A stretch of DNA of 64,000 bases from a virus. Shown piece after piece: positions 1-40,473 of the stretch (positions within the stretch are counted from its first letter, which is position 1; the number at the start of each line of letters is the position of its first letter). Below the pieces are notes generated by a model that saw only the letters and a program-made list of their open reading frames with translations, was not told where the DNA came from and did not search any database. A program made the position numbers and the translations under genes. The stretch covers positions 127,127 through 191,126 of the IMG/VR virus record IMGVR_UViG_3300033144_005525; one strand, 5' to 3'.

Positions 1-366
1 GTTGACTTTTTTTGCCACATCCTTCGGATCCAAACGACCCAAAAGAAGTTGCTCCACCAATCTTCTCACCCTGAAATTGGGGAGGATGGACGAGGCAGCC
101 TTCACCTTGTCATCTGGATTGTGGAGAGACCACACACCTGCATTGCGTAGGAATCGAACGGAGGGACGGTTGTACCGATCAATAGGGTCGTAGTTGACTG
201 GAAGATCTACGTACAGGGCTTCTCGTAGGTTGGAGATGTACACCGCGTCTGGTGCAGGGAACCCCAGGGTCTGTACTGCCATTCGAATCCAGTCGTCCTT
301 CTGGGCGTCTGGGCTCTTAAGGGTCAGTAGATACTTGACGAAGTATTCACTGGGGTGGCGCTTCAT
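1..366 (-). CDS. Hypothetical protein, truncated at the window edge (3' end missing)
   Basis: Not in the ORF track. Manual translation from ATG at 366 (MKRHPSEYFVKYLLTLKSPD...) stays open to position 1 and begins 4 nt after the stop of the upstream gene. Confidence 0.75.
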   Translation of the reverse strand, partial: MKRHPSEYFVKYLLTLKSPDAQKDDWIRMAVQTLGFPAPDAVYISNLREALYVDLPVNYDPIDRYNRPSVRFLRNAGVWSLHNPDDKVKAASSILPNFRVRRLVEQLLLGRLDPKDVAKKVN

Positions 367-370
367 GTTT

Positions 371-2647
371 CTACTTTAGCGTCAATCGAGGCAGAGTCGT
401 AAGCCCAGTACCACTGCGCTGCAGACCTACGGCAATGAGGGCTCCAATGAGAGCTCCTCTCGCTACACCAGACACGCCCTTCTCGAAGATGCTGGTGTCT
501 CCTCGTTCGTTAGGTTTTGAGCCCTTAGCGGCTCCCAACAAACCACCCAGTACTGCTCCCCACCTGCCTCCGACCAGAGCAGCCTCCAGAGCTGTGCCTA
601 CTGCTCCTGTTTTGACTAGGTCACTGACGAACGAAACAGTGGCGACCTCAGCAGCTGTCTTCTTTTTGGACAGAAACTCCTTCTTGAACCGCTCGAGCGT
701 GACTTCTCGGACCTTGCCCATCTCGTCCTTGCCTTGGTGCTGCAGGTAGGACTTCTTGGCCTCCTCTTTTGAGTCGTAGCCAAGCATGATCTTGTTCTCG
801 TCGAAGCTGTCGTCTGAGCTACGCAGCTTCTCCAGGACGAAGACTTTGATGCTATCTCGGTTGGGGCCGATGTAGACGTCCAGCTCCTCTCCGTCGGCAT
901 CCATGACTCCACGGACGTATCCATAGTCCGCCTTCATCTTCTTGTCGTAGTCGATGGTACCTGTGGATTTCTTCTTGAGTGGATCGTGGTTGAAGTACTT
1001 GCGAGTCTCGCCCTTACGCCACTCCAGACTGAGGGGAATACCATGAAGGGTAAGCTTCTCTTTGACCGGATCGTTGGCGGTCTTCTCCTTGAGCCTTTTC
1101 TTAGCTGCCTGGCGAGCCTCATACTCCCGGCGCTTCTGTGGGTGCTTCATGAAGTACTCGAGCATGTCTCCGTTGGCGACCTTATCGAAGTCAATCGATT
1201 TAGATCCAGTGATCTTCGCATTTCTGGTAGCTATCGATAAACGCTTCCTGAAACCGGGATCGTTCAACTTGCTCTTCAGTTCTTGAGCACCTCTATCTTG
1301 CCAACGGGACAAAGGAGTACTTTTAGCCGCCATGCTGGGAGCACTGACAGGGTTTGGTGAGTCTCCCATGTTGGACTTTGGTGGATCTACAGGAGTAGGT
1401 GGAGGCATAGAAACAGGAGCCACACCAGATGTCTTCTCCTTCATCATCCTCTTCACACCCTCTCGAGCGATCAGAGCACCTAGAGCTGCAGTCCCAACGC
1501 CTATGGAGAACCGTCCAGGGTTCTTACGGACGTAGCTGGGGAAGGCAGGGGCTAGTTCCCTCAGGTTTCGGAGACGGCTACGCCCTTTACCTCCGTGGAT
1601 GTACTTTGAGGGAACATCTTTAGATGTTCGAGACGCACGGTCCTTTGAAGACTTGCTTCCCCAGTCAGTGTCTGTTTTGAATTCGGTGTCGTACATGCCC
1701 ATGGGGACATCTACTTTGACTATGTTTTTCCTTCTACTCCACGCCTCTCTTACGACTCTCCTTGCTAGTTCAGGAGTCATGGTGCCGGATGCGGCAGAGG
1801 TATTGAGGGATTTCAAAACATCGGGAGGCAGGGTGAATATATGAGCGACGTTGCGCTGACCGGTGAGATGCACTTTGCCTTTTGAGTGCTTACCGAATTT
1901 CTTGTGTATCGAAGCAGCACCCTCACCCCCTCTAGAAGCCTTGAGCCCCTCTCGCTTGATCTTTTCCACTGTCTTGGGATCAGCCGTACCGTGGTAGAGC
2001 TTCTTGTATCCCAACAGACGGGCACGGGTTCCAGAACCTGCGGCCAGGCTGGCTCCCTCGGCGGCTAAAATACCACCGGATAGGAGCTCACGATCTTCTG
2101 CGGTCTTCTCTTTGGACTTCGGCTTCACCAGCACTCCCCACCTCTTCATGAGCTTGTGGGGAGGAGCCATAGCTCGGTCCCACCAGATCTTCTCAAGCTT
2201 CTCTTCAGAGAGCACACGCCAGTTGGGGATAGCTGTCTTGCCCTTGGTATTAGGATCCATGACGATGAATCCCTTGCCCGGCTTGAAGCCTGTGATGACG
2301 ATGTAGTGACCCTTGCCCGGATAGTTGAAGCTTTGGATGTCCGCAATGATCGGGACCCCTTGCTTCAGCGTCTTCTTTGCTTCCTCAAGCGATGAAAACG
2401 AACCCTCGCTGGCGTCGAAACCGAGCTTGCGAGCACCTTCAACGATGTCGGTAGTCTCAGCCCCACGCCCTTCCCGTGCACCGATAGCTTTAACGATTTC
2501 TTCCTCTGAGATTTCGATCCCATAGTGCTGAAGGACCGATTTGAGTGTACCCGCAGAGCAAGACCACTCCGTCTTCTGCTGGTATGCGTCGACTTGAGCC
2601 GTCTTCGTGAACTCAATAGATCTCCTATGTATCTCAGAGAGGTTCAT
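371..2647 (-). CDS. Multi-domain (polyvalent) protein: peptidase C39-like + ADP-ribosyltransferase-like (H-H type) + inorganic pyrophosphatase-like + C-terminal glycine zipper
   Basis: C39 motifs QQKTEWSC, GHYIVITG, MDPN. ART/Tpt1-like motifs LYHGT...IKREGL...KVHLT. PPase-like motifs DYGYVRG..DADGEELDVYIG and DENKIMLGY. Hydrophobic Gly-rich tail GAVLGGLLGAA...GALIGALIAVGL. Confidence 0.8.
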   Translation of the reverse strand: MNLSEIHRRSIEFTKTAQVDAYQQKTEWSCSAGTLKSVLQHYGIEISEEEIVKAIGAREGRGAETTDIVEGARKLGFDASEGSFSSLEEAKKTLKQGVPIIADIQSFNYPGKGHYIVITGFKPGKGFIVMDPNTKGKTAIPNWRVLSEEKLEKIWWDRAMAPPHKLMKRWGVLVKPKSKEKTAEDRELLSGGILAAEGASLAAGSGTRARLLGYKKLYHGTADPKTVEKIKREGLKASRGGEGAASIHKKFGKHSKGKVHLTGQRNVAHIFTLPPDVLKSLNTSAASGTMTPELARRVVREAWSRRKNIVKVDVPMGMYDTEFKTDTDWGSKSSKDRASRTSKDVPSKYIHGGKGRSRLRNLRELAPAFPSYVRKNPGRFSIGVGTAALGALIAREGVKRMMKEKTSGVAPVSMPPPTPVDPPKSNMGDSPNPVSAPSMAAKSTPLSRWQDRGAQELKSKLNDPGFRKRLSIATRNAKITGSKSIDFDKVANGDMLEYFMKHPQKRREYEARQAAKKRLKEKTANDPVKEKLTLHGIPLSLEWRKGETRKYFNHDPLKKKSTGTIDYDKKMKADYGYVRGVMDADGEELDVYIGPNRDSIKVFVLEKLRSSDDSFDENKIMLGYDSKEEAKKSYLQHQGKDEMGKVREVTLERFKKEFLSKKKTAAEVATVSFVSDLVKTGAVGTALEAALVGGRWGAVLGGLLGAAKGSKPNERGDTSIFEKGVSGVARGALIGALIAVGLQRSGTGLTTLPRLTLK

Positions 2648-4111
2648 CTAATACGTCTCCTCGGAGGGGAGTAGATCTTTGAACTGATCTATCAAACCCT
2701 GTTTCTGCTTCGACAGCGTGGTCAGATACTCATCGGCCCCTGTACCTGGTTTACGGATCTTTGATTTCTCCAACAGGCCATGCTCAGGAAGAATGGCTAA
2801 GTACCTCTGCACGTGAACAACTCTCTTGTTCTTTGGGAGGTGAGAATGGCTTTTGTAGCGGATACCACGTCCCTCTACTTGACGAATCTTCTCCTGATTC
2901 CAATGAGGCTCCATGACCTGGATCATGCTAGTGCCCTTAAGGTCAAGTCCTTCTCCTCCAGCAGAGGATAAGAGCAGGACTCTGTTCTTGCCTTCATTGA
3001 AGTTCTGGACCATTTGATCTCGGTCCCTCTTCTTCATCTTACCGGTGAACTCACCGTAAGGGATCTTGGCTGAGTTCAACCGCTTCTTGTACGGATCTAA
3101 GCCAGCTTGTATGTAATTCGAATAGACAACGACTCGACCATACGGGTCTTTGAGCTCTTTCTTCAGGTTACCGAAAGCGGCCTGAATTTTAGCTTCGTGC
3201 GACGTCTTATCTTCTTTGATGTACGGGGCAGTACTCAAAGACACCTGACGAAGACCAGTCATGAACGCGTTGAGGTCCCTAGATTCCTGCTTAGAGGGAG
3301 GTAGATTGTTCCTGACTTTGAATCGAACCCAAGCCGGAGCCTTCTTGATGATGGAGTTGTATATCTCCCTCTGCTCCTTAGTCATGGGGACTTTGACGTC
3401 TGATCGTTCTACTAGTGGGAAATTCTCCTCACCTCTGGGGTGATGGTCTATCCACTTTTCGAACGATGCTCGTATCTCCTCCTCCATCTTGGGATCGAGC
3501 TCTGTCACAGAGCCTGGCCGAATACCTTTCAACGTCCCCCAAAACCCTGGGCCTACTTTCCGTTCCCGTGTGTACCGCTTTTTGAATTCAACAGGGTCGT
3601 TGGGGAATACGTTCTCCCCCGCGGCTATGTTGACTAGCGGAGCGATGTCGGACGGCCTGTTGTAGAAGGGACTGGCCGTCATCAACATACGTTTTTTAGA
3701 CTTATTGTCTCTCAGTACTCGGAACCCCTTGGTGTGGGTCTCCCGAATACGATGGGCCTCATCAACTACCAACACCTCCTCAACTGGAGGCTGTCCACTG
3801 ACTGTCACCTTCTGTAGGGACAGCAAGTCAGGATTAGGAGTGCCTCCGGTTGTGTGCTTCTTCAGCTCCTTCTCATAGTTCTTGATCAAAGAGGCAGGAG
3901 CTACAACTACTGAAGGCTTACCCAAAGCATCCAAAGCCGCTATGGAAGTTAGGGTTTTTCCAGACCCCAATTCATGGGCGATCAACAAACCAGGCTGATC
4001 TTCTTTGGTTATTCGATCTACGACTCTCTTTTGATGAGGCTGTAGCTTAGTTTTTACCTTTGCGTACTTCCGCAAAAGCTGCATCCCATCGCGTATGCCT
4101 GCAAAGTCCAC
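2648..4111 (-). CDS. SNF2-family (SF2) helicase/translocase with short N-terminal leader
   Basis: LQPHQ, AHELGSGKT, VVDEAH, MTASP, SSAGGEGLDL, QVEGRGIR. GTG start. Confidence 0.88.
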   Translation of the reverse strand: MDFAGIRDGMQLLRKYAKVKTKLQPHQKRVVDRITKEDQPGLLIAHELGSGKTLTSIAALDALGKPSVVVAPASLIKNYEKELKKHTTGGTPNPDLLSLQKVTVSGQPPVEEVLVVDEAHRIRETHTKGFRVLRDNKSKKRMLMTASPFYNRPSDIAPLVNIAAGENVFPNDPVEFKKRYTRERKVGPGFWGTLKGIRPGSVTELDPKMEEEIRASFEKWIDHHPRGEENFPLVERSDVKVPMTKEQREIYNSIIKKAPAWVRFKVRNNLPPSKQESRDLNAFMTGLRQVSLSTAPYIKEDKTSHEAKIQAAFGNLKKELKDPYGRVVVYSNYIQAGLDPYKKRLNSAKIPYGEFTGKMKKRDRDQMVQNFNEGKNRVLLLSSAGGEGLDLKGTSMIQVMEPHWNQEKIRQVEGRGIRYKSHSHLPKNKRVVHVQRYLAILPEHGLLEKSKIRKPGTGADEYLTTLSKQKQGLIDQFKDLLPSEETY

Positions 4112-4132
4112 GAAGCGGCTTCCTATCCTTCG

Positions 4133-6115
4133 CTACAGTAGCTGCTTCTGCTGAAGACCGCGGAGACCTTGGATGACCTCTTCCAGGTTCTTCATCGAAC
4201 GCTCGATAGCTCCCTCATCGACCTGAGACATACCCATGCGAGCAGCCATGAGCATCTCAGCCAACCTCTGGACAGTCTCATCCATCTGTGGGAGGTAGCT
4301 GGCGAAGATGGCGATGTTCTCCGGGTTGAGGAAGTTCATCGCCAAGATGCGATCTGCTGTCTCTGAGTCCTCGAGTGCAGCTGCTTCCTTGACGAGATCT
4401 CGACGAAGGTCGTAGGGGAACTTCCCAAGCAGGACGGAAGCCTCCTTGATGGCCTCCTGGTGCACATGCTCGAGCGGTGTGATGGTGAGGAGACCCTCAG
4501 CGGTCGTCCTACCCTGTCTCTGAGCCTCTGCCAGCTTCTCACGGGCTTGGAACTGGTTGAGACCTGCAGTCACCAGCAGGAACTCTGCAGCCTGTTTGTC
4601 CAGCCACTGGACTTGAGCCAGCTTGCTGAACGGAAGACCGCTGAGGTGGAACTCATCCTTCCCGGTCGAGCGAATCCAACCGGTGGTAGAGAATGCTCGA
4701 GCTTCCTTGACCTGCTCGGCGGCAGAGGGCGTCTTGACGACATGAACAGCCTCACCCAGAGGAGTGAACTTCATCGTGTCGGGGATCGCGTACGTGCCTT
4801 CACCAGTAGCTTCGATGGTGTTCAGTCCTTGGGTGACCATCAGAGTGATGTCGTTGCCGAAGGCATCCTGAACAATGAACCCAGGATTCCCCTGCTCGTC
4901 CTGAGTCTGGTTCTGCACGGTCACAGGAGGCAAAGCACAGACACTGCCGTCCGGCTTGATGTAGAAGAAGGCCCCATCCCCTTGAGGAGGGGCCTCAGGG
5001 ATACTGGCGGCGTCGTCGCCCACCCTAACCCCTACAATCTCATCCTGCAGGCTGTAGCTGCTCTCTCCGTCCGTGAACAGGAACAGAGGGAGCTTGTCCA
5101 TGTCGAAGTCCATGACCGGAATGACCCAACCGGTCTTGTCTTCTCCAGTCTCCTCGATCTGCACCTGATACTGACCGAAGTCTCCGACGATGGCAGGGGT
5201 CGGGTCATCGAGAGAAGGCTTAGCCTCCTCAGTCCCCACCGTCATGGAGTCTCCGGGCTGCATCTGCTGGACAGAATCCGTGCCCGCCATCTGCTGGGCT
5301 TCTTGTGGATTCGCAGAGGCTTCTTGCGGGGAGAATGCACCCGCATTGGCCCACTTGATCTTGAAGTTGCCGTCTGCCTGCTTGATGAACTGAACCACCG
5401 TGGGCTGGATGGATTGGACCAGAACGCCAGCCGTCTTCTGAACGGAGGTTCGAGGCGTCGACGTCACGATGTGGGCCATCTTGTGGAAGTTTGGATTGAC
5501 CTGTACTGCCACAAGAAGTTGCTGGTCCTTGGCGATCTTCTCCACCAGAGCAACTGCATCCTCATCAGAGATGGTGGGTGCGATTGCCTCCATCAGACTG
5601 GCGAACTTGCCAAATCCGGCTCCTCCGGCCGCGGCCCCAGTTGTCACGCCAGATCCGTACCCGTAGTTGGTTCGGATTGGTGGGTGTAGCTGGTCGACCA
5701 TGCCCTGATCGACAGGCTTGCGGGTTGATGGCTCGAAGGTTCGACCGTCGAAGAGAGCCTCACTGACACGCTGCTCACTCATCGGGAAGGCCTTGTCTTC
5801 GAACAGGAAGATGTCGGCCGGCGCCATGAGGCGGTCCTTCACGATGATGGGAATGATGACCTTCGGGCCTTCAGCAGAGGGCTGATCTGTAGGTGTGGTC
5901 ACCTCGGCACTACCAAAGGCATACCCACGCTCTGGATTCACTCTCTGGAAGATCACGTTCACCGTGTAGTTGGAGAGAAACGGCAGGAACTTGTAGATCT
6001 CTGAACTGACCTCTTTCTGCCAGTTGTCTACGTTGTCCGACAGTTTGATGGGCATAGCCATCTTCTCGAAGGAGATATCGGTAGCTTGCTGATCGAGAAA
6101 CAGTGGAGTTGTCAT
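4133..6115 (-). CDS. Putative head/inner-core structural protein rich in K-x-A motifs
   Basis: 660 aa acidic ORF in the structural-strand operon with about 13 K-x-A sites and no recognisable catalytic motif. Function is inferred. Confidence 0.5.
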   Translation of the reverse strand: MTTPLFLDQQATDISFEKMAMPIKLSDNVDNWQKEVSSEIYKFLPFLSNYTVNVIFQRVNPERGYAFGSAEVTTPTDQPSAEGPKVIIPIIVKDRLMAPADIFLFEDKAFPMSEQRVSEALFDGRTFEPSTRKPVDQGMVDQLHPPIRTNYGYGSGVTTGAAAGGAGFGKFASLMEAIAPTISDEDAVALVEKIAKDQQLLVAVQVNPNFHKMAHIVTSTPRTSVQKTAGVLVQSIQPTVVQFIKQADGNFKIKWANAGAFSPQEASANPQEAQQMAGTDSVQQMQPGDSMTVGTEEAKPSLDDPTPAIVGDFGQYQVQIEETGEDKTGWVIPVMDFDMDKLPLFLFTDGESSYSLQDEIVGVRVGDDAASIPEAPPQGDGAFFYIKPDGSVCALPPVTVQNQTQDEQGNPGFIVQDAFGNDITLMVTQGLNTIEATGEGTYAIPDTMKFTPLGEAVHVVKTPSAAEQVKEARAFSTTGWIRSTGKDEFHLSGLPFSKLAQVQWLDKQAAEFLLVTAGLNQFQAREKLAEAQRQGRTTAEGLLTITPLEHVHQEAIKEASVLLGKFPYDLRRDLVKEAAALEDSETADRILAMNFLNPENIAIFASYLPQMDETVQRLAEMLMAARMGMSQVDEGAIERSMKNLEEVIQGLRGLQQKQLL

Positions 6116-7221
6116 GATCTAACCTTCGGACTTACGTGTTTGAATGGAGGAACGATAGGCCCTCTCAATACTGGAACGGGCGGACTCGGTGGCCCTATCA
6201 ATAACCCTGTGACTGCGCCTATCCAGGCCATGAAATCTGGGGAAGCTCGTATGACTGGGAACTCTGCATCTCCCAATCCTACGCTCAGTCCGTTCAAAGC
6301 TGCGCCACCGGAACCAAGAGCAAGAGTAGCCCCGCCTCCAGATAAGGCCATGGAGGCTGCCGACGCCGTGAGAGCTACTGTCGAGGTGATATCGATGGCT
6401 CCTGTCACGATGAGCTTGAACAGGCCTTTGACGGTGGCCTGCATATCTCCTTCGACAGTGAGCGTGAACTTCTTGACGGTCCATGTGAGTTCTCCGTCTT
6501 TGTTGATCTCGAGGGATGTCTGAGTAGTTCCCCCACCAGAATCACGGCTTAGCAGGCTCAGAATAGTGTCATTGCCCTCTCCGTGGGAACCCATTTTGAG
6601 AATAGCGATGGGGTCCTCAATCGGATCATCTGCAAATTCACGGGCTCCCAGAGTGAACAAGCACATTTGGTGCCCTTCTCCATCCTCTTCCGTTCGGGCA
6701 ACCTCCCAGGTGAGGTCTCCGGCCGGAGTGTGGAGCTCGTAGTTCTCACAGTGGTCTTGGATGATGTTCCTGATAGGTAAGTAGATGCGTTGGCAAACAG
6801 GAGTGGCTCCCACCTGGATGATCCCACCACGACGCAGGTGGACGAAGTTCCCATCCCTGGTAGAGAAATGAAGATCTCCAGGATTCAGCAACTCACGGCC
6901 ACCCCTAAACGCACCACCTTCATCCACCATGCTCCAACCCAGAACGAAGGCATCCTTGCCTTCTTCTGAGGGAGTACATATCCAGCAGGTGGATCCCACT
7001 TCGGGCATAAAGTTGATCCCCTCTCCCTGCGTTTGGTTGCAGTAGGGAGACATGAAAGGGATGTCGAACTTGTTTTTGTACGTGAGGATGGTAGTCACGT
7101 CACACGTGTAGTCCCGAATGTTGACGGTCGTGATTCGGCCACTCTCTATCAGGGCACCTTTTACCTGAGCGGCCGACTTGGCCATGCTCTCACATCGTTC
7201 TGGTTCTACATTCGCAGGCAT
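6112..7221 (-). CDS. Putative baseplate central spike (gpV/Gp5 OB-fold type)
   Basis: N-terminal GRITTVN...CDV...MPEVGSTCWI resembles the spike OB-fold, followed by short beta-strand repeats (LTVEGDMQATVKG, IVTGAIDITS). Confidence 0.6.
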   Translation of the reverse strand: MPANVEPERCESMAKSAAQVKGALIESGRITTVNIRDYTCDVTTILTYKNKFDIPFMSPYCNQTQGEGINFMPEVGSTCWICTPSEEGKDAFVLGWSMVDEGGAFRGGRELLNPGDLHFSTRDGNFVHLRRGGIIQVGATPVCQRIYLPIRNIIQDHCENYELHTPAGDLTWEVARTEEDGEGHQMCLFTLGAREFADDPIEDPIAILKMGSHGEGNDTILSLLSRDSGGGTTQTSLEINKDGELTWTVKKFTLTVEGDMQATVKGLFKLIVTGAIDITSTVALTASAASMALSGGGATLALGSGGAALNGLSVGLGDAEFPVIRASPDFMAWIGAVTGLLIGPPSPPVPVLRGPIVPPFKHVSPKVRS

Positions 7222-7224
7222 GGG

Positions 7225-10200
7225 CTAGTACAGATGCGTCTTCTTGGGGGTTCCCTCCCCGAACTCCGCTCCGTAGGCATAAGCCGGGATTGGGTTGTTT
7301 CCGTGTAGGTTGGTTTTCCAACCCTTGGATGCACCCTCCATGAGGGTTTCCTTCAGCTTACGGAAATTGAGTCTGGCCATCCAATCCTCTTGCTGATCAA
7401 GAGCTCCCTGAGACAACCCCTTGATGACCGGTCTGTGTGTCACTGGGGCGCTACGGCTTCCTGCTTTTTTGTTCTCTTCTTCGATGACAGAACGAAGAAC
7501 TATATCCCCACTGAAATAATCTGAGTCTCCCGGATCCTTCACCTGAGTTAGATTGGTCAAAGAACGAACGACCATTTCTATGTTTCGTCGCTTGACCCGC
7601 TCATCTTTGTAGATCCCATCGTACAGCTCCTTGGTGAGGTAGTTCTGCACTGTTGGGATATCGGTGAGGGGAAGAAGCTCTCTTGGGTTGATTGGACCGT
7701 CCGTAAGGGGGGAACCCTTCTTCATGCTGGATCCAACCTGAAGAGGTTTTCCATCCCTCAACAGTTTCCTCTGCGATGGAGCGTAGTGTTTCTCTCCTCC
7801 GATGTAGACGTTCCAGCCCTGCGTGTCCTTGTCTCGTTCGATCTTCTGGACCTTCCCACCCACTCTTGAAAGCGTTGCGGATCCAGGTAGCTTCTTTGGG
7901 GGATTCAAGAGCTGCTTCAGGCGACCGATTCTACTGACCGCACCCGCACCTCTGGAGCCTGCGACTCCTCCTGTGTGGAAGCTGTCCATTGCTAGCTGCA
8001 TGGCAGGTTCACCTAGAGCGTGACCTGCGATGACACCGATGTTGGTACCCACACTGTGGTCTTCACCATTCTCATTCAGACCAAAGCACTTGGAGCATAT
8101 ACCCCTACCGTGAGAGCACTTGAGTGGGCTACGTACAACAACCTTCCCAACTCCATTCTTCTTCAACTGAGACAGAAGATGAGGAGTAACCAAAGAGCCC
8201 TCTTCGTGCAGCCTTCCTCCCGCTTTAACCTTCTTGGCCAGATACCTACCGTGGACATCCTCTTCGTGGATTCCCATGGAGATACCATCACCCACCTTGC
8301 AATCCTTGGACACAATCATCTCTGGGATGACTGTGTTGACGATCTCCTTGGTCAACATACCGGGCTCAGACGTTCCTTCTGCCCTTTGCAGAGTACCCAT
8401 CCGAGCTCCGTGTAGGGCTGTCCAATAATCTCCGACATCCAATCCCTCGGAGTAAGACTTCCTCACAGGGGTCGGGAGAGTCCTTCCGGTGGCATCCTGC
8501 ATGAGCATGGGCGCAATGTTCATCTGTCGGAACTGGGACCAGTTACCTCGAGTACCCGAGTCCACCATAGTGAAAATGTTATTCCCACTGGCCTCTATCC
8601 GGGGCTTGAGCTTCTTCTTCATATCGTCGGTGGCTTTGGTGTAGTTAGCCACCAGCTTTATGTCCTTGTCCTCTTGACTGAGCTTCCCTGCCATTATTTT
8701 GGCAGCAACTACATCTGCCTTGGCCAAAATCTCTTCTCGGACAGCTTTGTCTTCACCCAGACCGAGATCGGAGAGACCTATGGAGAATCCGAACTCGTAG
8801 CTATGTTGGTTCCCTAGGTTCTTCAGACGGTCAACTGTATTGGCGTAGTTGCGTGGATCATCTCTGGCAATTTCCGAGAGGATGTCATGAACACCGACCT
8901 TGTTCTTGTCTTTCGAGTCGGAGAACTTGTTGAGGACGAACCTTGGGTTGTGTAGGAGATCTTTGTTGTCTCGGAATCTCTTAGGGAGCTGATGAGCCAA
9001 CATCAGGCGACCTACAGTGGTCTTCTTCCCATTTACTGTAACCACGTCCTGCGCAGTGACGATCCCTCTGTCACAAGCCTTCTTCGCATCAGCGTAGGTA
9101 GAGAACTTCTTCCCTACGTCTTTGCCCCACTTGGACAGGAGGTGGATACCCAACAGAGACTCTTGCTCTGGGGCATACATGACTCCCCCATTGGTAGAGC
9201 TGAACAGGTTGTTTGAGGGGAACATCTTACGAGACTCTCGAACTGCCTTATCCGTTAATGGGACAAAGGCGCTCATCGTGTCTCCGTCGAAGTCTGCGTT
9301 GTAACCTGCAGTGACCAGAGGATGGATCCGAATAGCCTTTCCATCCACCAACTGCGGCTTGAACGCCATGAAGTTGAACTTGTGTAGGGCAGGATCCCTC
9401 TTCAGAAGAACAGGGCGGTCCTCTATGATCTTTTCGAGAGCTGCCCAAGCCACAGCTGTCTCTTCCTTGATGTCCTTATGAGCTTGTAGTGGGCTGCGTC
9501 CTGTTCTCTTGAGCTCTCGAATGACGAATGGCTTGTACAGCTCCATAGCTGCACTGCGAGGTATACCGACACGGTCCAGGTGCATCTCCGGCTCAGGGAT
9601 GATGGTGGAGCGCATCGACAGCTCTTGCCGTCTCTTCATCAACTTGCGTTGGAAGAACCCCTGCTTCGGAGAAGGACCCGCTACCGTATCCAGGATCCCT
9701 TTCAGTTGTCTGTTAGATTCGTACTGAGGTACTCCACCAGTACCCATTGTGGCTTTTAGTAGATCGTACAGCTCCTCTCGTAGAGGCTGATCTGCTTCCG
9801 GTAGGTCAAGGATCTTGTCCTTCAACTTGTTGTTGACGATCCCAAGATCCTTGTACAGGTGGTTGATGTCATCGAAGCGCAACGATCCATCAGGCATAGG
9901 AACGATTGGACGAAATACCGGAGGAATCACCGGTACATTGTTCATCACGTAGGCTTCGCTGGGAGACAGCTTCAGTTCCTTCAAGGCCCGGAGGTACTTG
10001 GCCTTCCTGTTGGCGTGGTTGAGCTTGGCCTTCCTGAGGTTGGGGAGCTCGGCCACTGTCTTCTTGAGCTCGGCATCTACATCGACTTGATCGAGAAGGT
10101 GTCGGATGGCTTCCCCTCCGATCTTCCCATCGATGTCCTTCTTACCCTTCACGATGTCTTCGAACTCTGGGTACTTCAACCCACTCAACACCACGGCGGG

Positions 10201-13200
10201 TCCAGGTTTCTGCGGTGTGCCTACGAACACAGGGTTTGGCATCGGCTCTGCCAGAGCTATGTGAGACCAGTTGAGTCCTTTGCCAGGTTCGTTAGGACTA
10301 GGTAGACCTCCAGTGATCTCTGGATCAAATAATCCCTTCTCGAGCTCCTTGGCATCCTTTCCACGAAGCACACGACCAGCATCTTTGATCTCTCCATTCG
10401 AGAGATTCAAGACCCCTTTGTCTGTGAGAGGGACAAGCTGCAGCTCATTTCCCTCCTTCTTAGTGTCGATGCCTAACCCCTTCAGATAAGCCTCAAACTT
10501 CTTGTAGGCAAAAGTAGGGCGTGGCGCAGGAATTGGCTGCCCCATCTGCACACGATGCCAGAAGTCTACGTGCGCTTGCGGATTCATGTTGTCGTCTACC
10601 TGACGATCCGCCTTGTACGTGGCCATCTCCTTTAGGTTCTCACGAGCTCCATGAGCCAACAGACTGTAGAACTCCAACTGTCCGATTCCCTGCCCCGGAT
10701 GCTCTGCCCCCGTACCCTTAGGAGCACCGTCGATGGAGTAGTTGGGTCCATGACTTCGGACAGTCAACTTCTTATCCACCTGATGCTTGAGTTTCATAAT
10801 GTACTGGTCCCCCGTCAGTACATTTCCAATCCTCTTCTTGGTCTCTGGATCAAACAGCTCTTCTTGATCCGATAGCCCATGATTAGCCAAATCCTTCTTC
10901 ACACCCTCGGTGTAGTCGATGTTGGCCCCACCAAAGTTGTTCACCAAGTAAGGACGACCTGTCTTCTTGGCTATTTTGCTGGAGGCTGTCTCCAACATTT
11001 GACCCAAGTTGATGCGACTGGGCACACCAGACGGATTCATCAGCACTTCTACATGCTCTCCGTCAGGACTCCCCTTACGTGGCATCTCTGCGTTGGGAAT
11101 TATCTTGGTGATAATGGCCTTGTTTCCGTGGCGACCAACAATCTTGTCACCCACCTCGGCAGGCTCTTCTGTGCGGATGTGAACTACAGCACCCTTCCCA
11201 TTCGGGATCTTATGTACCTTGACCACCTCACCAGGATTCTGAGACTCCCACTTGGAGCTTCTATCGGCGTACTCGAACAGCTTCCTGTCCAGTCTAGAGG
11301 CCATACGAGAGACAACGCCGAGGTTCTCCCTCTTCCCGACGGCAGCCACCAAGATGTCCCCAGTGTCCACTTTCTGCCCTACACGAATGACCCCATCGTC
11401 ATCCAGTTTATCCAACTGCTCTCGAGTCATTTGCTTCGAAGTAGTGGAAGCGTATGCCTGGAACTTCTTCTTGTTCATGAAGTCTTTGGAAGGGTCAATC
11501 TCCACACTCTTCCGATAGACATGCTCTGAAGTAAGTTTGTCGGCAGCTGAATCAGAAATGACGATGCCGTCCTCGAAGTTGTAACCCTTGTAAGGCAGGT
11601 AACTAACCCGCAGGTTTGTTCCCAGCGCTAGTCCACCATCCCTGGTGAAGTTCGTGTCGGCCAGGACCTGCCCTTTCTTTACCTCAGCACCGACCTCTAC
11701 TACGGGCTCTGAGTTCATGAAGGACTTTGCGTCATTCAGAGGGAAGTGATTGTAGAGCTGTACCTCGTGCTTCTTTCTATCCTTCCCCTTGATGATAATC
11801 GAGTCCGGATACTCGTTGTCGGTCTGATCAGAACGGATCTTCAAGACCTTTCCGTCAACAGGAGAGGAGTGAGAGAACGGACCACCAATGATCTTTTCCC
11901 AGCTATCCTTTCCTCCACGTACCTGGACAAGTGGAAGCTCTCTATCCCTCAGACCCACTGCCTGGTTGGCTTGGCGAGAGGCCGTCATCGTCCTGTTGCC
12001 CTGGTTGTTCTGAAGGAACGGAATCAGGTTGGTGGCTTCATCGAACAACTGATGAGGAGATACAAACAAGTAGCGAGCCTTCTTGAAAGGCTGCTTGATG
12101 ATGTCCCCTGTCTTGGGGTCCTTCATCTTCACTGTGGGGGATATAGGCTTGGGGCCTTTTCCATCCTCCCATGTGACTTGATCAGGAAGTAGGACGTACT
12201 CCGAATGGAGCTCCGCTGGAGTGACTCCGTTCCTACCCTTCCTGAATTTCTTTTCCTTCAGGTCGTAGACCAGTGCCTTGACGTCTTCCCCATCCTTGAC
12301 GACACCCATAGGCAAGTTGAGGCTGATGCCTGTTCTCTTGCTCTCCGGTGTGTGGATAGGATCCAAGAAGCCCATATGGCTGGGGTTGATGAGTTTCATA
12401 GAGCGGGACAAAGTCCTCTCGCTCTTGATCCCTCCCTCTTCTCCCCCAAGGATGGTAGTAGCTCGATGGTTGGAGAGCATCTCCAGAGGATTGACCTGCT
12501 CCGGATTCTCTGACAGAGAGGATCTGGTGAACACTTGATCGACGTGCCTACCGAACAGGTCTCCCGATACGACTTCTCGTACCTTGTCCTTCCTGTTGAT
12601 GTTGTTACTGATCTTCCTCTTGATCTCCCTCTGAGTAACGGCTTTGCCGATCCTCTCCAACAGGAAGTCGTCTACACTGGTGAGCTTTTTGAACACCAGA
12701 GAGTCTCGATCATCTGGTGGAGCTTCACCTCGAGCAACTTCAAGAACTCTCCTGGACGCTTGCAGCAGTGCATCACCAGTCACCGTCTTGTAGGGCTTAC
12801 CAAGAGTACGTTGGGTAGTCTCTGGCAGTAGCTCGGTGTTACCGAACTCTTCTACTACAGCACTGGCGATATCGTCGTACGTGTCACCCTTGGCCTTCAC
12901 ACCTCTTTGGCTGATTTTGCTGTAGAGCTGCTTGATGTTTCCTTCCGTCTTGTCTGTGACATTGGCCTTGTAGATGTCTGGTCCCCAGACCTTCTTCATC
13001 TCTTCGTCCTGGACACCCAAGGTCTTCAAGATGGAGTAGAGAGGTATGTTCTGGGTCCCCCATCTCATCTTGAACGCTTTGGTCTTGGGGCTGAATGGGA
13101 CCTTCAGCCTGGACTCTCGAGCGAAGGGCTTGGACAGTGCGAACTCTGTCTCTAGATCTCCATTCGCCTTGATCTGAGAGTACACACCAGGACGGAGTCT

Positions 13201-13539
13201 CCAGAGGTTCCCTACTTGCCTTTCATTGCCTCCGACGATGTAGCTGTATCGGTCGGTCGGTCTCGGTAAGGTAAACAGTTTTACCTTAGAGCGATCGACA
13301 ACCTTGCTGGTCTTCTTATCTACGAGGCTGATATCCCCATACACACCAGCTCCCCAAGTTCTATTGGACAGCTTGGCCTTTTCTTGGCTTCGAATGTCAC
13401 CGGATTCAGCAGATCGCTGATCTACGATAACCTCGTTTAGAACCAGTTTGCGGGTCTGTCCATCGACCGGAAAGCTAGCCTTGACAGACTTGACCGCGCT
13501 GCGCTGTAAATCTTTCCAAGTATCGGCTGGTGTTGTCAC
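7225..13539 (-). CDS. rpoBC: DNA-directed RNA polymerase, fused beta-beta' single polypeptide
   Basis: Beta motifs HTPES..TG, GYNFEDG, GDKIVGRHGNK, NPSGVPSRINLGQ, KLKH. Beta' motifs PVIPP..RP, LKRDPALH, YNADFDGD (9280-9300), RSPLKC...CSKCFG, GEPAMQL..SFHTGG. One uninterrupted 2104-aa ORF. Confidence 0.96.
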   Translation of the reverse strand: MTTPADTWKDLQRSAVKSVKASFPVDGQTRKLVLNEVIVDQRSAESGDIRSQEKAKLSNRTWGAGVYGDISLVDKKTSKVVDRSKVKLFTLPRPTDRYSYIVGGNERQVGNLWRLRPGVYSQIKANGDLETEFALSKPFARESRLKVPFSPKTKAFKMRWGTQNIPLYSILKTLGVQDEEMKKVWGPDIYKANVTDKTEGNIKQLYSKISQRGVKAKGDTYDDIASAVVEEFGNTELLPETTQRTLGKPYKTVTGDALLQASRRVLEVARGEAPPDDRDSLVFKKLTSVDDFLLERIGKAVTQREIKRKISNNINRKDKVREVVSGDLFGRHVDQVFTRSSLSENPEQVNPLEMLSNHRATTILGGEEGGIKSERTLSRSMKLINPSHMGFLDPIHTPESKRTGISLNLPMGVVKDGEDVKALVYDLKEKKFRKGRNGVTPAELHSEYVLLPDQVTWEDGKGPKPISPTVKMKDPKTGDIIKQPFKKARYLFVSPHQLFDEATNLIPFLQNNQGNRTMTASRQANQAVGLRDRELPLVQVRGGKDSWEKIIGGPFSHSSPVDGKVLKIRSDQTDNEYPDSIIIKGKDRKKHEVQLYNHFPLNDAKSFMNSEPVVEVGAEVKKGQVLADTNFTRDGGLALGTNLRVSYLPYKGYNFEDGIVISDSAADKLTSEHVYRKSVEIDPSKDFMNKKKFQAYASTTSKQMTREQLDKLDDDGVIRVGQKVDTGDILVAAVGKRENLGVVSRMASRLDRKLFEYADRSSKWESQNPGEVVKVHKIPNGKGAVVHIRTEEPAEVGDKIVGRHGNKAIITKIIPNAEMPRKGSPDGEHVEVLMNPSGVPSRINLGQMLETASSKIAKKTGRPYLVNNFGGANIDYTEGVKKDLANHGLSDQEELFDPETKKRIGNVLTGDQYIMKLKHQVDKKLTVRSHGPNYSIDGAPKGTGAEHPGQGIGQLEFYSLLAHGARENLKEMATYKADRQVDDNMNPQAHVDFWHRVQMGQPIPAPRPTFAYKKFEAYLKGLGIDTKKEGNELQLVPLTDKGVLNLSNGEIKDAGRVLRGKDAKELEKGLFDPEITGGLPSPNEPGKGLNWSHIALAEPMPNPVFVGTPQKPGPAVVLSGLKYPEFEDIVKGKKDIDGKIGGEAIRHLLDQVDVDAELKKTVAELPNLRKAKLNHANRKAKYLRALKELKLSPSEAYVMNNVPVIPPVFRPIVPMPDGSLRFDDINHLYKDLGIVNNKLKDKILDLPEADQPLREELYDLLKATMGTGGVPQYESNRQLKGILDTVAGPSPKQGFFQRKLMKRRQELSMRSTIIPEPEMHLDRVGIPRSAAMELYKPFVIRELKRTGRSPLQAHKDIKEETAVAWAALEKIIEDRPVLLKRDPALHKFNFMAFKPQLVDGKAIRIHPLVTAGYNADFDGDTMSAFVPLTDKAVRESRKMFPSNNLFSSTNGGVMYAPEQESLLGIHLLSKWGKDVGKKFSTYADAKKACDRGIVTAQDVVTVNGKKTTVGRLMLAHQLPKRFRDNKDLLHNPRFVLNKFSDSKDKNKVGVHDILSEIARDDPRNYANTVDRLKNLGNQHSYEFGFSIGLSDLGLGEDKAVREEILAKADVVAAKIMAGKLSQEDKDIKLVANYTKATDDMKKKLKPRIEASGNNIFTMVDSGTRGNWSQFRQMNIAPMLMQDATGRTLPTPVRKSYSEGLDVGDYWTALHGARMGTLQRAEGTSEPGMLTKEIVNTVIPEMIVSKDCKVGDGISMGIHEEDVHGRYLAKKVKAGGRLHEEGSLVTPHLLSQLKKNGVGKVVVRSPLKCSHGRGICSKCFGLNENGEDHSVGTNIGVIAGHALGEPAMQLAMDSFHTGGVAGSRGAGAVSRIGRLKQLLNPPKKLPGSATLSRVGGKVQKIERDKDTQGWNVYIGGEKHYAPSQRKLLRDGKPLQVGSSMKKGSPLTDGPINPRELLPLTDIPTVQNYLTKELYDGIYKDERVKRRNIEMVVRSLTNLTQVKDPGDSDYFSGDIVLRSVIEEENKKAGSRSAPVTHRPVIKGLSQGALDQQEDWMARLNFRKLKETLMEGASKGWKTNLHGNNPIPAYAYGAEFGEGTPKKTHLY

Positions 13540-14001
13540 CTGTGCGCTCCCTCGGGAATTCAGGCCTACGTATGTTCGTTCGGATCCTATGCACCTGCGC
13601 TCAGAGCAGTCCTCGGACCTTAGAACTTCAAATTAGGTTACGCCAAACAAAACTCTGCGTCCAGAGGGCATAAGAGTGTTGATGGGGCACCTCTGCCCGC
13701 TTCTGGGTATGTGACCCAGGGAAAAACCATGAGCCCCAACAGCAAGAATTTAGGAGAAAACCATGAAACAGACCAACACACGGGACCCGACCGCGACTAC
13801 CAAACCCAGTACGAGGACAACAAGACTGAGGCTCTCCTATTCCGCACAGACCAGCAGGTAGGAGAAGGCCAGTACGGAGGCTACAGCTACAACCCAGGGA
13901 AGTAGGGTATAGGCCCGTGAGCCTATTCCTGATCGCCGTAGCATTCGCTTTCGTGACCAGGTCTATTCTGATAATCGAGTATCATTGGCGGCAGTACTTG
14001 C
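13540..14001. promoter_or_regulatory. Divergent intergenic control region between rpoBC (minus) and the small-gene cluster (plus)
   Basis: Largest gap without a convincing ORF. Contains GGCATAAG at 13667-13674, an RBS-led 32-aa ORF (13763-13861) and a small hairpin ATAGGC-N6-GCCTAT at about 13909-13926. Confidence 0.5.
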
Positions 14002-14400
14002 ATGGCGGGTGGTGAAGTAGGGGCGTTCTGTCCGATTCTGTGGGAAGCAAACCATGGCAGGACAAACAAGGACGGAACGCCTCTGTTCGAGTCGGGGCTG
14101 TTGATTCAGGGTGTCTGCGAGAGTCCTCAAGATTGCGATCGATGCGGACTACTGCAGAACGCCAGGACTCAGATGTACGGACAAAACGTGACTACCTTGT
14201 GGGTCTGTCCGGACTGTTCTGGTGAGTCCATGAAGAGAGCCAAAGCCGACGACGTAGCTGCCAGCCTCCCAGGCTATTTCACCGAGGGGTACTGCCAACA
14301 CCCGCAGTGCGCCAGACCAAACGGTGATCAGTCTGACCAAGAGGCCAGATACTCAATACTCCTGCAGCTACTGACTGTTGCAGGAGCCACAATCCCATAG
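14002..14400 (+). CDS. Cys-rich hypothetical protein (putative Zn-binding)
   Basis: CPIL, CESPQDCDRC, CPDC, CQHPQC. Abuts the RBS of the next gene. Confidence 0.7.
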   Translation: MAGGEVGAFCPILWEANHGRTNKDGTPLFESGLLIQGVCESPQDCDRCGLLQNARTQMYGQNVTTLWVCPDCSGESMKRAKADDVAASLPGYFTEGYCQHPQCARPNGDQSDQEARYSILLQLLTVAGATIP

Positions 14401-14410
14401 GAGGCCATCA

Positions 14411-14716
14411 ATGGTCATTTGCTGTGGGTGCGGAGACCCTTTCGCTGCCGCAGACGGTGGCCTGATGATCAAGCCAGTTGTTGGCGTGGCCAGTCCCAAG
14501 TCAGGCAGATCCATACCTAACGAGAGTACGTTTCCGGACGGATCGAGGGAAAAGTTCCTATGCAACACATGCTGCTTTTCGGCAACTGAGGTAGGTGTCG
14601 TAGTTGGAATCTACGATACCGGCTACGACTTCCCCCACGAAAAGGAGGTGCACCCTGGCGCAGTGTCTGGAGTGTTCCCAACCTATCAACTTGGGTCAGG
14701 AGTTCATAAGAATTGA
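14411..14716 (+). CDS. Small Zn-finger-like protein (paralog of the next gene)
   Basis: AGGAGG RBS precedes ATG at 14411. MVICCGC...SPKSGRSIP...CNTC. Confidence 0.7.
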   Translation: MVICCGCGDPFAAADGGLMIKPVVGVASPKSGRSIPNESTFPDGSREKFLCNTCCFSATEVGVVVGIYDTGYDFPHEKEVHPGAVSGVFPTYQLGSGVHKN

Positions 14717-15053
14717 AACTGGAGTAGTAGTGGTGTCGAAAAAGTCTGGGCGACCACTACCTCTATCTAATTCTGGGGAACTGATCCACAACGTTTGTTT
14801 CCAATCCTACTTGGTGAATACCAGCAACCAACTGTGGGACCACATCATCACTATCCTGCAACCAAAAGTCAGGAAAGAAGTTCTTCAAGAGCTTGGGGAA
14901 GAATTGAAGCAGGAAGCGTTCGACGAAGCAGTGGAGGAGCTAGGCAGGACATGTGTTGTGTGTAGCGAGGAGATAGAGTTCATGGCTGAGACGGATCCGA
15001 CCGAAATCCAGCCTCACCATTCAGCTCTTCCTCCACCACTCTCTCACTACTAG
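14655..15053 (+). CDS. Small Zn-finger-like protein, probable CTG start
   Basis: AAAGGAGGTG RBS then in-frame CTG at 14655. (M)AQCLEC...SKKSGRPLP...HNVC, plus a C-terminal CVVC. Confidence 0.65.
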   Translation: MAQCLECSQPINLGQEFIRIETGVVVVSKKSGRPLPLSNSGELIHNVCFQSYLVNTSNQLWDHIITILQPKVRKEVLQELGEELKQEAFDEAVEELGRTCVVCSEEIEFMAETDPTEIQPHHSALPPPLSHY

Positions 15054-15061
15054 TAGATAGC

Positions 15062-15104
15062 AAAGAGAAAGGCGGGGGTTCCATACCCCCGCCTCCTCTC
15101 TTTT
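15062..15104. terminator. Bidirectional intrinsic terminator
   Basis: AGGCGGGGGT-tccat-ACCCCCGCCT stem flanked by A-rich and T-rich tracts, between convergent genes. Confidence 0.8.
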
Positions 15105-15118
15105 AGCTAGTTGCTGCC

Positions 15119-17797: not shown

Positions 17798-17872
17798 AGC
17801 GACCTCCCTTTAGTTGTCAGATCAAAGTGGTTCGGATCTCCTAGCTAAGTCCGAAGCTTAAACCTTATGCCA

Positions 17873-19942: not shown

Positions 19943-19945
19943 TGG

Positions 19946-20533
19946 TTACCTACCCTGCTGAAGCGTTTGCATTGCAGCAGCTCTTTGTAGCAGAGCATCA
20001 CGCCGTGCTGGATCTTGGATTGGAGGCTGCGCAGCAGCTTGACGAGATCTCTGCCATGGCAACGTAGACACCTTCTCTCCCAACAATCCGCCTGCGATAG
20101 CCCCACCGATACTGCGAATAGCTCTACTGCCGATGATGGGAAGACCTCTTCCAGGAGCACTCAGTAAAGCTCCTGCTCCGGCTAGTCCTCCTAGCATCAT
20201 GCCACCGTACCCAGAGACCCTCTCGGTTCTGGATCGTCCCATACCCATTGGATCTTGTTTAGCCAAGAGACCAGGAATGGCAGGCACACTAAGTCCCACC
20301 ATCAAGGACTTCCCACCGATAGGAAGATGCCTACGAATGGCGGTGGGTTTACCCTTTTTGTTTTTCAAGGCTCCGAACCAACCACCGCGAGCTCCTCCTT
20401 CTCCCATGTCATCCCAGCCCTTGGACACCCACTTACCTACCGTCTTACCTACCCTAGATATCACCCCGGGACCGGCCGCTATCTTTACCAACTCATCACC
20501 GAACGCAGAGTAGGTTTTGGAGTCCATGATCAC
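19946..20533 (-). CDS. Basic glycine-zipper membrane protein with F-x-x-E-L-x-K-I-A leader
   Basis: AFGDELVKIAA leader; GGMMLGGLAGAGALL and IGGAIAGGLLG segments. Start may be the ATG at 20527. Confidence 0.65.
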   Translation of the reverse strand: MIMDSKTYSAFGDELVKIAAGPGVISRVGKTVGKWVSKGWDDMGEGGARGGWFGALKNKKGKPTAIRRHLPIGGKSLMVGLSVPAIPGLLAKQDPMGMGRSRTERVSGYGGMMLGGLAGAGALLSAPGRGLPIIGSRAIRSIGGAIAGGLLGEKVSTLPWQRSRQAAAQPPIQDPARRDALLQRAAAMQTLQQGR

Positions 20534-40335: not shown

Positions 40336-40473
40336 ATGACTGAGGACCAGCTCCGGTGGACGTGCGACCAAGTAGGGATTGCTGCCAAGCCCAATTGGCA
40401 ACGCAGCAAACTACTGACTGAGATCCTTCGAGCCTCTGTCAGTGCAGAGAACTACCACCATCGAATCCGTTAG
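40336..40473 (+). CDS. Unannotated small ORF (45 aa; frame open from 40135) with HeH/Rho-N-like pattern
   Basis: MTEDQLRWTCDQVGIAAKPNWQRSKLLTEIL. Its TAG overlaps the TAA of the convergent gene. Confidence 0.5.
   Translation: MTEDQLRWTCDQVGIAAKPNWQRSKLLTEILRASVSAENYHHRIR

Follow-up and report, generated by a model that had tools for sequence, protein, structure and literature searches.

A phage polyprotein whose enzyme modules meet at K-x-A sites: a candidate capsid cargo precursor for a head-maturation protease

The final 64 kb (hereafter the window: 64,000 nucleotides, positions 127,127 to 191,126 of IMG/VR record IMGVR_UViG_3300033144_005525) of one 191,126-bp phage contig, whose completeness is estimated by CheckV at 91%, begins with a minus-strand gene placed between that of a 2104-amino-acid RNA polymerase and the terminase/head genes. 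The open reading frame, 371-2647 (-), is one uninterrupted frame of 758 amino acids, and it joins a C39-like cysteine peptidase, a module with the ADP-ribosyltransferase (ART) fold and an inorganic-pyrophosphatase-like (InPase) domain into a single polyprotein along which a short motif, KT[AS], recurs (Table 1). We propose, as the probable though by no means settled reading, that this chain is a precursor of capsid-internal cargo that is cut at K-x-A sites by the phage's own head protease.

KT[AS] occurs six times in the polyprotein, against 0.82 copies expected, and six or more copies were found in 2 of 20,000 composition-preserving shuffles. The longer form K[EK]KT[AS] is present four times compared to 0.017 expected, a count that none of the 20,000 shuffles reached. 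In the structure model of residues 150-540 the junction sites sit in linkers or at helix ends beside disordered sequence, and none is buried in a globular core.

Table 1. Features of the polyprotein and related genes. Coordinates are those of the window unless marked otherwise; pLDDT, predicted local distance difference test score.
Feature	Residues	Coordinates (strand)	KT[AS] start residue (window position)	Basis or remark
N-terminal leader ending F-T-K-T-A (site 1)	1-17	2597..2647 (-)	15 (2597-2605)	Sequence and homologues
C39-like papain-fold cysteine peptidase	18-155	2183..2596 (-)		Pfam; fold probably reaches ~178
KTA within C39 domain	137-139	2231..2239 (-)	137 (2231-2239)	7 residues past presumed catalytic Asp
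Junction K-E-K-T-A	179-183	2099..2113 (-)	181 (2099-2107)	Linker, pLDDT <50
ART-fold module	184-402	1442..2098 (-)		AlphaFold2 model and structure comparison
Junction K-E-K-T-S	403-407	1427..1441 (-)	405 (1427-1435)	C-terminal end of helix 377-406, then disordered Pro-rich stretch
Pro-rich disordered stretch and two helices	408-489	1181..1426 (-)		pLDDT 42-56 over 408-444; helices 445-479, pLDDT 65-83
Degenerate junction D-K-V-A	490-493	1169..1180 (-)		Comes after low-confidence stretch
Short conserved helical peptide	494-519	1091..1168 (-)		Helix pLDDT 92-93; own mobile module in homologues
Junction K-E-K-T-A	520-524	1076..1090 (-)	522 (1076-1084)	End of helix 503-524, low-confidence sequence after
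InPase (type I inorganic-pyrophosphatase-like OB-fold) domain	525-660	668..1075 (-)		Pfam PF18823
Junction K-K-K-T-A	661-665	653..667 (-)	663 (653-661)	S-K-K-K-[T/I]-A after InPase in homologues too
Degenerate K-T-G	679-681	605..613 (-)		End of leader-like helix, ahead of glycine-zipper module
Glycine-zipper-like hydrophobic module	682-758	374..604 (-)		Sequence appearance and family conservation
SNF2-family helicase gene		2648..4111 (-)		Pfam SNF2-rel_dom 9.4e-20, Helicase_C 7.1e-17
660-amino-acid head-region protein, no known family		4133..6115 (-)		Conserved
2104-amino-acid single-chain RNA polymerase, beta-like and beta'-like parts		7225-13539 (-)		PHROG matches to phiKZ-type RNA polymerase subunits
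707-amino-acid protease		Genome 117254-119377 (-); L001:10128-12251		7.7-9.9 kb before window start; gene between terminase and capsid protein

The C39 domain matches PF13529 (1e-16, 62.2 bits, cut-off 24) and PF03412 (8.5e-11, 42.3 bits, cut-off 22), and its sequence matches in the PDB include the PeiR endoisopeptidase (2.5e-5) and the C39 domains of bacteriocin ABC transporters. At the level of the alignment Cys30, the sole Cys of the protein, and G-H-Y at 113-115 pair with the matching residues of PeiR (8z4h_A), suggesting a C39-like peptidase that is probably active through Cys30 and His114. It departs from the strict bacteriocin-processing type, as Pfam shows no ABC transporter domain and the junction motif is K-x-A, not G-G.

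For the middle module, an AlphaFold2 model of residues 150-540 built on an alignment of 146 sequences reached pLDDT values of 86-98 across 210-409. It is laid out as a Gly-rich hydrophobic helix, a core of about 210-365 with Y-H-G-T (H219), and a C-terminal hydrophobic helix (377-406). Its nearest structures by VIA-align are the NAD lobes of Tpt1/KptA (20-27% identity), led by Tpt1 8tfz_A with a Z-score of 7.5 that is middling by VIA-align's own scale (root-mean-square deviation 3.6, 86 residues, 24% identity); TreX of the Rhs ART toxins (6.8), Arr (6.7), pertussis S1 (6.3) and diphtheria toxin (5.6) are also matched, and all 50 rows listed belong to the ART superfamily. The leading Foldseek matches are again ART superfamily members, with KptA at probability 0.85-0.92 and E 0.08. 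Foldseek against the PDB gave no E <= 1e-3 for this model or for that of the protease described below, and the fold calls rest on the VIA-align Z-scores together with the uniform match lists. H219 is conserved in at least 90% of the 146 sequences and a second motif, V-H-[VL]-T, is as in Tpt1. As no curated ART family, such as PF18760 (ART-PolyVal), was matched in Pfam at E <= 0.1 and no conserved catalytic Glu was identified, we call the modelled module ART-like at the level of its fold; the ESM Atlas assignment to ART-PolyVal (0.80) is a weak lead only.

The InPase domain is matched by PF18823 at 1e-28 (100.3 bits, cut-off 26.8; residues 524-656, profile positions 6-132 of 135) and, among PDB sequences, by the C-terminus of the phage portal 9b41_L (5.6e-14). 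The family is expected to have four acidic metal-binding residues (PMC5512222); a possible counterpart here is the acidic cluster D-A-D-G-E-E-L-D, which carries Glu in place of the canonical Asp. The glycine-zipper-like module is always last in the family, being kept at the C-terminus of homologues P0002-P0005, P0008, P0009, P0012 and P0014. On the polyprotein no Pfam glycine-zipper model came within E 0.1.

Twenty-nine relatives of the polyprotein were found and, on the evidence of their alignments, modules are swapped, fused or split exactly at K-x-A sites. Homologue leaders end in K-[T/L/I/M/E]-A right before the conserved start of C39, where K-x-A followed by Q-V-D-A-Y is always found, and P-K-x-K-E-K-T-A follows C39 whichever module comes next. 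In every homologue with an InPase domain, K-x-A (x = T, V, Y, K or E) immediately precedes the N-D-P-[VI]-K at the start of that domain. A helical peptide of ~30 residues, preceded by K-x-A and N-G-D-M, recurs between two K-x-A sites at differing places in the chain; it is ahead of this peptide that the degenerate D-K-V-A aligns with K-T-A in P0003, P0004, P0005, P0013 and P0017. The K-T-G at 679-681 aligns in the same manner with E-L-x-K-I-[A/S] before the glycine-zipper module. At the middle position of the site T, V, I, L, M, Y, K and E are all found, Lys and Ala/Ser/Gly hold, and the residues downstream of each site travel with the following module. Proteins of 50-88% identity, and more distant ones, keep the sites at homologous junctions. 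The copy at residue 137 is kept in all close C39 homologues and is absent from the more distant stand-alone C39 proteins of genomes G001 and G008.

What lies between C39 and InPase differs from one homologue to another: the ART-fold module here, a cupin in P0008, an acetyltransferase (GNAT) in P0009 and nothing in P0004. P0011 has an acetyltransferase-like module ahead of InPase, and KTSC, a C92 peptidase or a domain resembling P-loop kinases is present in other members. For the ART-fold module 190 relatives were found by sequence, the majority of them stand-alone proteins 220-290 amino acids long, and of the ~110 N-termini that were read most consist of a short leader ending K-[I/L/V/T/M]-A followed by the same Gly-rich helix and Y-H-G-T domain. 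As these single-gene forms carry the motif at the end of their leader, the junction at 181 corresponds to such a leader end. C39 is likewise a stand-alone gene in two relatives, with a leader ending K-I-A or K-L-A, and in a 199-kb relative the slot between the 660-amino-acid protein and the next conserved gene holds only a 177-amino-acid C39 protein whose leader ends K-I-A. In a 201.6-kb relative (locus L086) the slot holds a separate C92-like peptidase gene and a C39-InPase protein, the two being fused through K-T-A in P0022. The L086 genes were read across their boundary (L086:7930-8060). The C92-like gene ends in a leader-like A-D-E-L-C-R-I-A-S-S-S and a stop; this stop, TGA, overlaps the ATG that opens the C39-InPase gene, a gene with no leader of its own. 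By its sequence, the pair looks like a recent split of a fused gene.

The original prediction, made from the letters of this stretch, had described a single reading frame with KT[AS] sites at positions that match ours exactly. Its domain order agrees with the Pfam spans (C39 18-155, InPase 524-656) and the folded core at 210-409, and the hydrophobic helices, the Pro-rich stretch and D-K-V-A are as it described them. Among its three domain identities, C39 and InPase score above the Pfam gathering thresholds, whereas ART holds at the level of the fold and not as a curated family match. It placed the motif at the domain junctions, which is where the linker and helix-end copies lie, but did not list KTA-137 or the degenerate K-T-G. 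KTA sites inside folded domains had been named as a point that would count against the idea; the modelled junction sites lie outside them, and KTA-137 falls within the Pfam span of C39. The expectation that domains shuffle at the KTA sites in homologues was borne out, and so was conservation at the junctions, K-x-A being kept before the C39, InPase and glycine-zipper modules.

The motif is not private to this protein. The genome has 35 KT[AS] in 219 called genes, 23 of which are in ten head-region genes on the minus strand, and the wider pattern hydrophobic-x-K-[TILVM]-A is found 57 times compared to 21 expected, with the strongest excess in seven head-region proteins. Across 80 related loci around the protease gene (422,490 amino acids) KTA is the most over-represented tripeptide (745 vs 150), followed by KLA, KIA and KVA once motifs that are merely conserved protease residues are set aside; enrichment exceeds 2-fold in 77 of the 80 loci and its median is 4.0. 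In 70 of 70 homologues of the major capsid protein, residues 24-26 read K-[I/V/L/M]-A. As read from these sequences, KT[AS] is the local form of a genome- and clade-wide K-[T/I/L/V/M]-A code.

It could be argued that the motif arises by chance or through low complexity in a protein with 11.5% Lys, or that it is a DNA repeat that promotes the recombination of cassettes. All 23 of the KT[AS] lysines in the head-region genes are encoded by AAG (genome 113998-133241, 147656-148609), which makes up 77% of the Lys codons there, a bias with a chance of about 0.0025 that would suit a repeat. Thr and Ala codons, however, differ freely between the sites, indicating that selection is on the protein and not on a DNA repeat. 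In addition, the sites are kept at homologous junctions, the enrichment is clade-wide and the observed KT[AS] count was reached by just two shuffles. We therefore find this explanation hardly credible: the shuffles rule out a chance origin and the synonymous codon variation rules out a linker repeat at the DNA level.

A candidate for the cutting enzyme is encoded by the 707-amino-acid gene between terminase and capsid protein. It consists of an N-domain unrecognised by Pfam, a second InPase and a C-terminal region of ~270 amino acids. In the model of the N-domain, pLDDT exceeds 86 over residues 41-240 and the leader site falls in a segment with pLDDT <50. VIA-align matched this domain to T4 gp21 (5jbl_B, Z 9.4, root-mean-square deviation 2.7, 132 of 164 residues), and 28 herpesvirus protease entries come next in the list with Z 5.0-7.8. 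His123, His124 and Ser180 are invariant in 61 homologues. In the same 61 sequences Lys32 of the leader, G-L-E-K-T-A, is invariant, and Ala34 is near-invariant, as is a K-T-A just past the last strand. The second InPase is also preceded by E-K-T-A. Lys and Ala are the conserved positions of the site, and the residue ahead of Lys, frequently E, can also be V, I, T or L; the conserved site does not follow the Glu-terminal cut motif (L/I/A/S/G)-x-E. The family has 3188 detected members, most of them fused to InPase and many on contigs of 180-220 kb, and some members carry inteins (LAGLIDADG and Hint matches). Among cultured phages the family is represented in Salmonella phage Arash and in Vibrio phages D69, D181 and D148. 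ESM Atlas assigns the protease to S77/S78 at 0.88-0.89, which we treat as leads only. The modelled fold makes it likely that the 707-amino-acid protein is a capsid-maturation protease of the T4-gp21/herpes-assemblin type, and the capsid protein shares one short motif with the protease and with several internal head proteins, as is expected of the substrates of a gp21-type enzyme.

By analogy with known head proteins, we suggest the following course of events. The N-terminal leader ending in hydrophobic-x-K-T-A would mark the chain as a head protein, the entire 758-amino-acid chain would be built into the prohead, and the 707-amino-acid maturation protease would cut it at the K-x-A sites. Herpesvirus assemblin cuts its maturation and release sites with Ala at P1, followed by a small residue, and with a hydrophobic residue upstream; by this likeness the scissile bond would probably lie just after Ala. 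The cuts would release the C39-like peptidase, the helix-flanked ART-fold module, InPase, the glycine-zipper peptide and several short spacers, and the pieces may then leave the capsid along with the DNA to act at an early stage of infection, like the T4 internal proteins and Alt. The five or six separate effectors of the original prediction would have to be recounted, as cutting everywhere gives about eight pieces of which only three or four are folded domains. Consistent with packaging, InPase domains are typical of virion-packaged polyvalent proteins and of portal fusions (PMC5512222), and virions of Salmonella phage Arash, a distant cultured relative, were found to contain RNA polymerase subunits, a sigma factor, a helicase and a homologue of the protease (PMC10585845). 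The Arash proteome thus supports the packaging of enzymes in the wider group, with the reservation that the preparation listed 116 proteins and may therefore be contaminated.

The cutter need not be the head protease, as the polyprotein is headed by a papain-fold peptidase that is probably active (Cys30, His114) and that might recognise the K-T-A junctions itself, in cis or in trans, whether within the capsid or once injected. The leaders (E-L-x-K-I-A) are loosely like the amphipathic double-glycine leaders that are cut by C39 enzymes. Self-processing is moreover a published hypothesis for polyvalent proteins, in that case by metallopeptidase domains (PMC5512222). However, a C39_2 domain is encoded in only 2 of 9 complete related genomes and in none of the Arash genes, and in the C39-less genomes the K-[TLIV]-A of the head module remains enriched 1.6-4.8-fold (22-43 observed vs 8-14 expected per locus). 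The motif is invariant clade-wide in the capsid protein and the gp21-like protease, the protease family has more than 3000 members compared to the 29 detected relatives of the polyprotein, and known C39 enzymes cut after Gly-Gly, a motif that the polyprotein does not have. We consider self-cutting improbable. As 7 of the 9 complete related genomes keep the enrichment without C39, and as the capsid protein and the leader of the protease invariably carry the motif, the sequences indicate that the head-maturation protease is likely the cutter rather than the C39 domain; of the two enzymes originally put forward, the prohead protease is the better supported.

A number of observations weigh against cleavage by the head protease at K-x-A. 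One KTA (residue 137) falls within the C39 fold, and in three of the four internal K[EK]KT[AS] sites the second position ahead of Lys is not hydrophobic, as it commonly is at other sites. Sites shared by homologous loci do not count as fully independent evidence. The Pfam S77 and S78 models had no match when the whole genome was searched, the protease being identified by its fold, and cutting at K-x-A would give this fold a new specificity, since every characterised gp21-type protease cuts after Glu (PMC5694885). The Arash proteome gives whole-protein coverage, 80-100% for K-x-A-rich proteins, which is compatible with full-length protein (PMC10585845). This coverage means that fragments are at least not lost, and as the paper and its supplement (a gene table) contain no peptide-level or semi-tryptic data, they give no evidence either way on cleavage.

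The same coverage, the K-rich internal sites with no upstream hydrophobic residue and the fact that cleavage has so far not been observed could be taken to mean that K-x-A is a targeting motif, a docking motif for scaffold, portal or protease, or a helix cap, the internal sites remaining uncut and the whole chain residing in the virion as a classical polyvalent protein. In T4 the capsid-targeting sequence is an example of a short leader that can act in loading (PMC3012670). Yet pure docking leaves unexplained why the motif is at every module boundary and why it coincides with points of gene fusion and fission. Nor does it explain the repeated copies within spacer regions, or why the motif lies ~25 residues from the start of the capsid protein and ~30 from that of the protease, the usual place for propeptide removal. 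An uncut motif is in our view unlikely, and we retain cleavage by the head protease as the preferred reading.

This reading can be extended to the mostly uncultivated clade of ~180-220-kb phages as a whole. One code may do two jobs: an amphipathic leader ending hydrophobic-x-K-[T/I/L/V]-A would both direct loading into the prohead and offer the cut site to a gp21-fold protease whose specificity would be new (Lys at P3, Ala at P1), allowing plug-and-play injection of arbitrary enzymes, of which the 758-amino-acid protein would be a four-cargo example. The portability of such a code would let enzymes be gained, exchanged, joined into polyproteins or separated into single genes. We hold this wider proposal more tentatively, as plausible but a little short of probable.

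Upstream of the polyprotein gene and on the same strand are the genes of the SNF2-family helicase, the 660-amino-acid protein, a 369-amino-acid protein and the 2104-amino-acid fused beta/beta'-type RNA polymerase. The TAG of the helicase gene directly abuts the ATG of the polyprotein, as read from the junction sequence, and the helicase gene shares the variable cargo slot, where L086 has its C92-like peptidase gene. Residues 12-17 of the helicase, L-L-R-K-Y-A, may form a leader site; K-Y-A also serves the InPase junction in homologue P0002, and the Arash helicase gp217, which was found in virions, has no such leader. The 660-amino-acid protein has five hydrophobic-x-K-[TILVM]-A sites compared to 0.29 expected and a leader that ends K-M-A, and its homologues flank the cargo slot in loci L084 and L086. 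The RNA polymerase heads the same gene block as the cargo polyprotein. Its homologue of 2102 amino acids in L086 has Pfam Rpb2 and Rpb1 matches, and in Arash the beta and beta' subunits are split, both being detected in virions.

Further proteins of this genome carry the motif. A 485-amino-acid low-complexity protein just upstream of the capsid gene (genome 113998-115455 (-); L001:6872-8329) has 11 K-[TIVLM]-A compared to 1.3 expected, and is a candidate for a scaffold or an inner-body protein; cutting would divide it into many pieces. A glycine-rich protein of 195 amino acids (19946-20533 (-)) has a leader ending K-I-A at 17-19, a protein of 199 amino acids (40470-41069 (-)) has K-I-A at 16-18, and one of 317 amino acids (20530-21483 (-)) has Q-E-K-T-A at 41-45; by these motifs the three are candidates for further capsid cargo or head proteins. 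Megablast of window positions 1-20000 against GenBank phages gave no match, and in tblastn of the polyprotein against phages the InPase part alone matched, at about 41% identity or less. In a search of sequencing runs, two DNA runs (marine sediment and marine metagenomes) shared 9-13% of words and no RNA run was listed, which provides no basis for statements on habitat or expression.

If K-x-A is cut, a substrate motif would be defined for an unrecognised and very large branch of proteases, with more than 3000 detected members, that is unlike every characterised gp21-type enzyme. Capsid cargo, including dozens of unknown proteins, would become predictable from sequence in hundreds of uncultivated large phages. 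A single tailed-phage gene would deliver several enzymes in the manner of a viral polyprotein, its cut sites doubling as the boundaries of evolutionary cassettes. A portable tag for loading and release could also help to bring foreign proteins into phage capsids, a use to which the T4 capsid targeting sequence is already put.

In phage T4, Alt is an ADP-ribosyltransferase. The T4 internal proteins are built into the prohead, trimmed by gp21, a protease of the assemblin fold, and injected with the DNA, and like the modules described here IPI-III and Alt are diverse, fast-evolving enzymes or inhibitors that share only an N-terminal leader of ~10-20 residues (PMC3012670). The protease here also has the gp21 fold (Z 9.4), and is unlike gp21 in being fused to InPase and a long C-terminal region. 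T4 cargo proteins are encoded by separate genes with one site each, whereas here the modules are concatenated with a site at each junction, and the T4 motif is L/I-x-E, cut after Glu, whereas here it is K-x-A.

In phiKZ-like giant phages, whose ejection and inner-body proteins (phiKZ gp175, SPN3US gp245) are processed by the prohead protease, many head proteins share a short cleavage motif and some are cut more than once, the protease trims itself and the virion RNA polymerase is co-packaged (PMC5694885, PMC10052503). As the prohead protease of these giant phages is thus already known to process head proteins at multiple sites, the original view that such a strategy is rare in phages was overstated. 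Their motif is nonetheless A/S/G-x-E, and apart from the C-terminal self-cleavage of the protease the cuts identified remove N-terminal propeptides and do not part enzyme domains from one another (PMC10052503). Module shuffling at the sites is not described for the phiKZ-like phages.

With C39, the ART-fold module and InPase in one reading frame in a virion/late-gene context, the polyprotein answers to the definition of the polyvalent proteins of Iyer, Burroughs, Anand, de Souza and Aravind (2017), in which unrelated enzyme domains are held in one virion-associated polypeptide and the repertoire includes InPase and ART (PMC5512222); here an SNF2 helicase adjoins. Release of the domains by proteolysis was proposed in that study, which does not mention C39, and the processing enzyme put forward there is an embedded zincin-like metallopeptidase, common but not universal in these proteins, with no cleavage motif defined (PMC5512222). 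No metallopeptidase match was found in our polyprotein with Pfam or PHROGs, and in contrast to those proteins it has a defined junction motif, one that implicates the head-maturation protease.

Herpesvirus assemblin has the same protease fold (Z 5.0-7.8), and yet the relation is remote, as the position of Lys differs and the herpesvirus substrates are scaffold proteins, not enzyme cargo. Our literature search found neither a K-x-A motif for a prohead protease nor an enzyme polyprotein of a phage head, which is not proof of absence. Compared with the known processing of head proteins, what would be new here is the non-Glu K-x-A motif and the concatenation of several enzymes in one gene.

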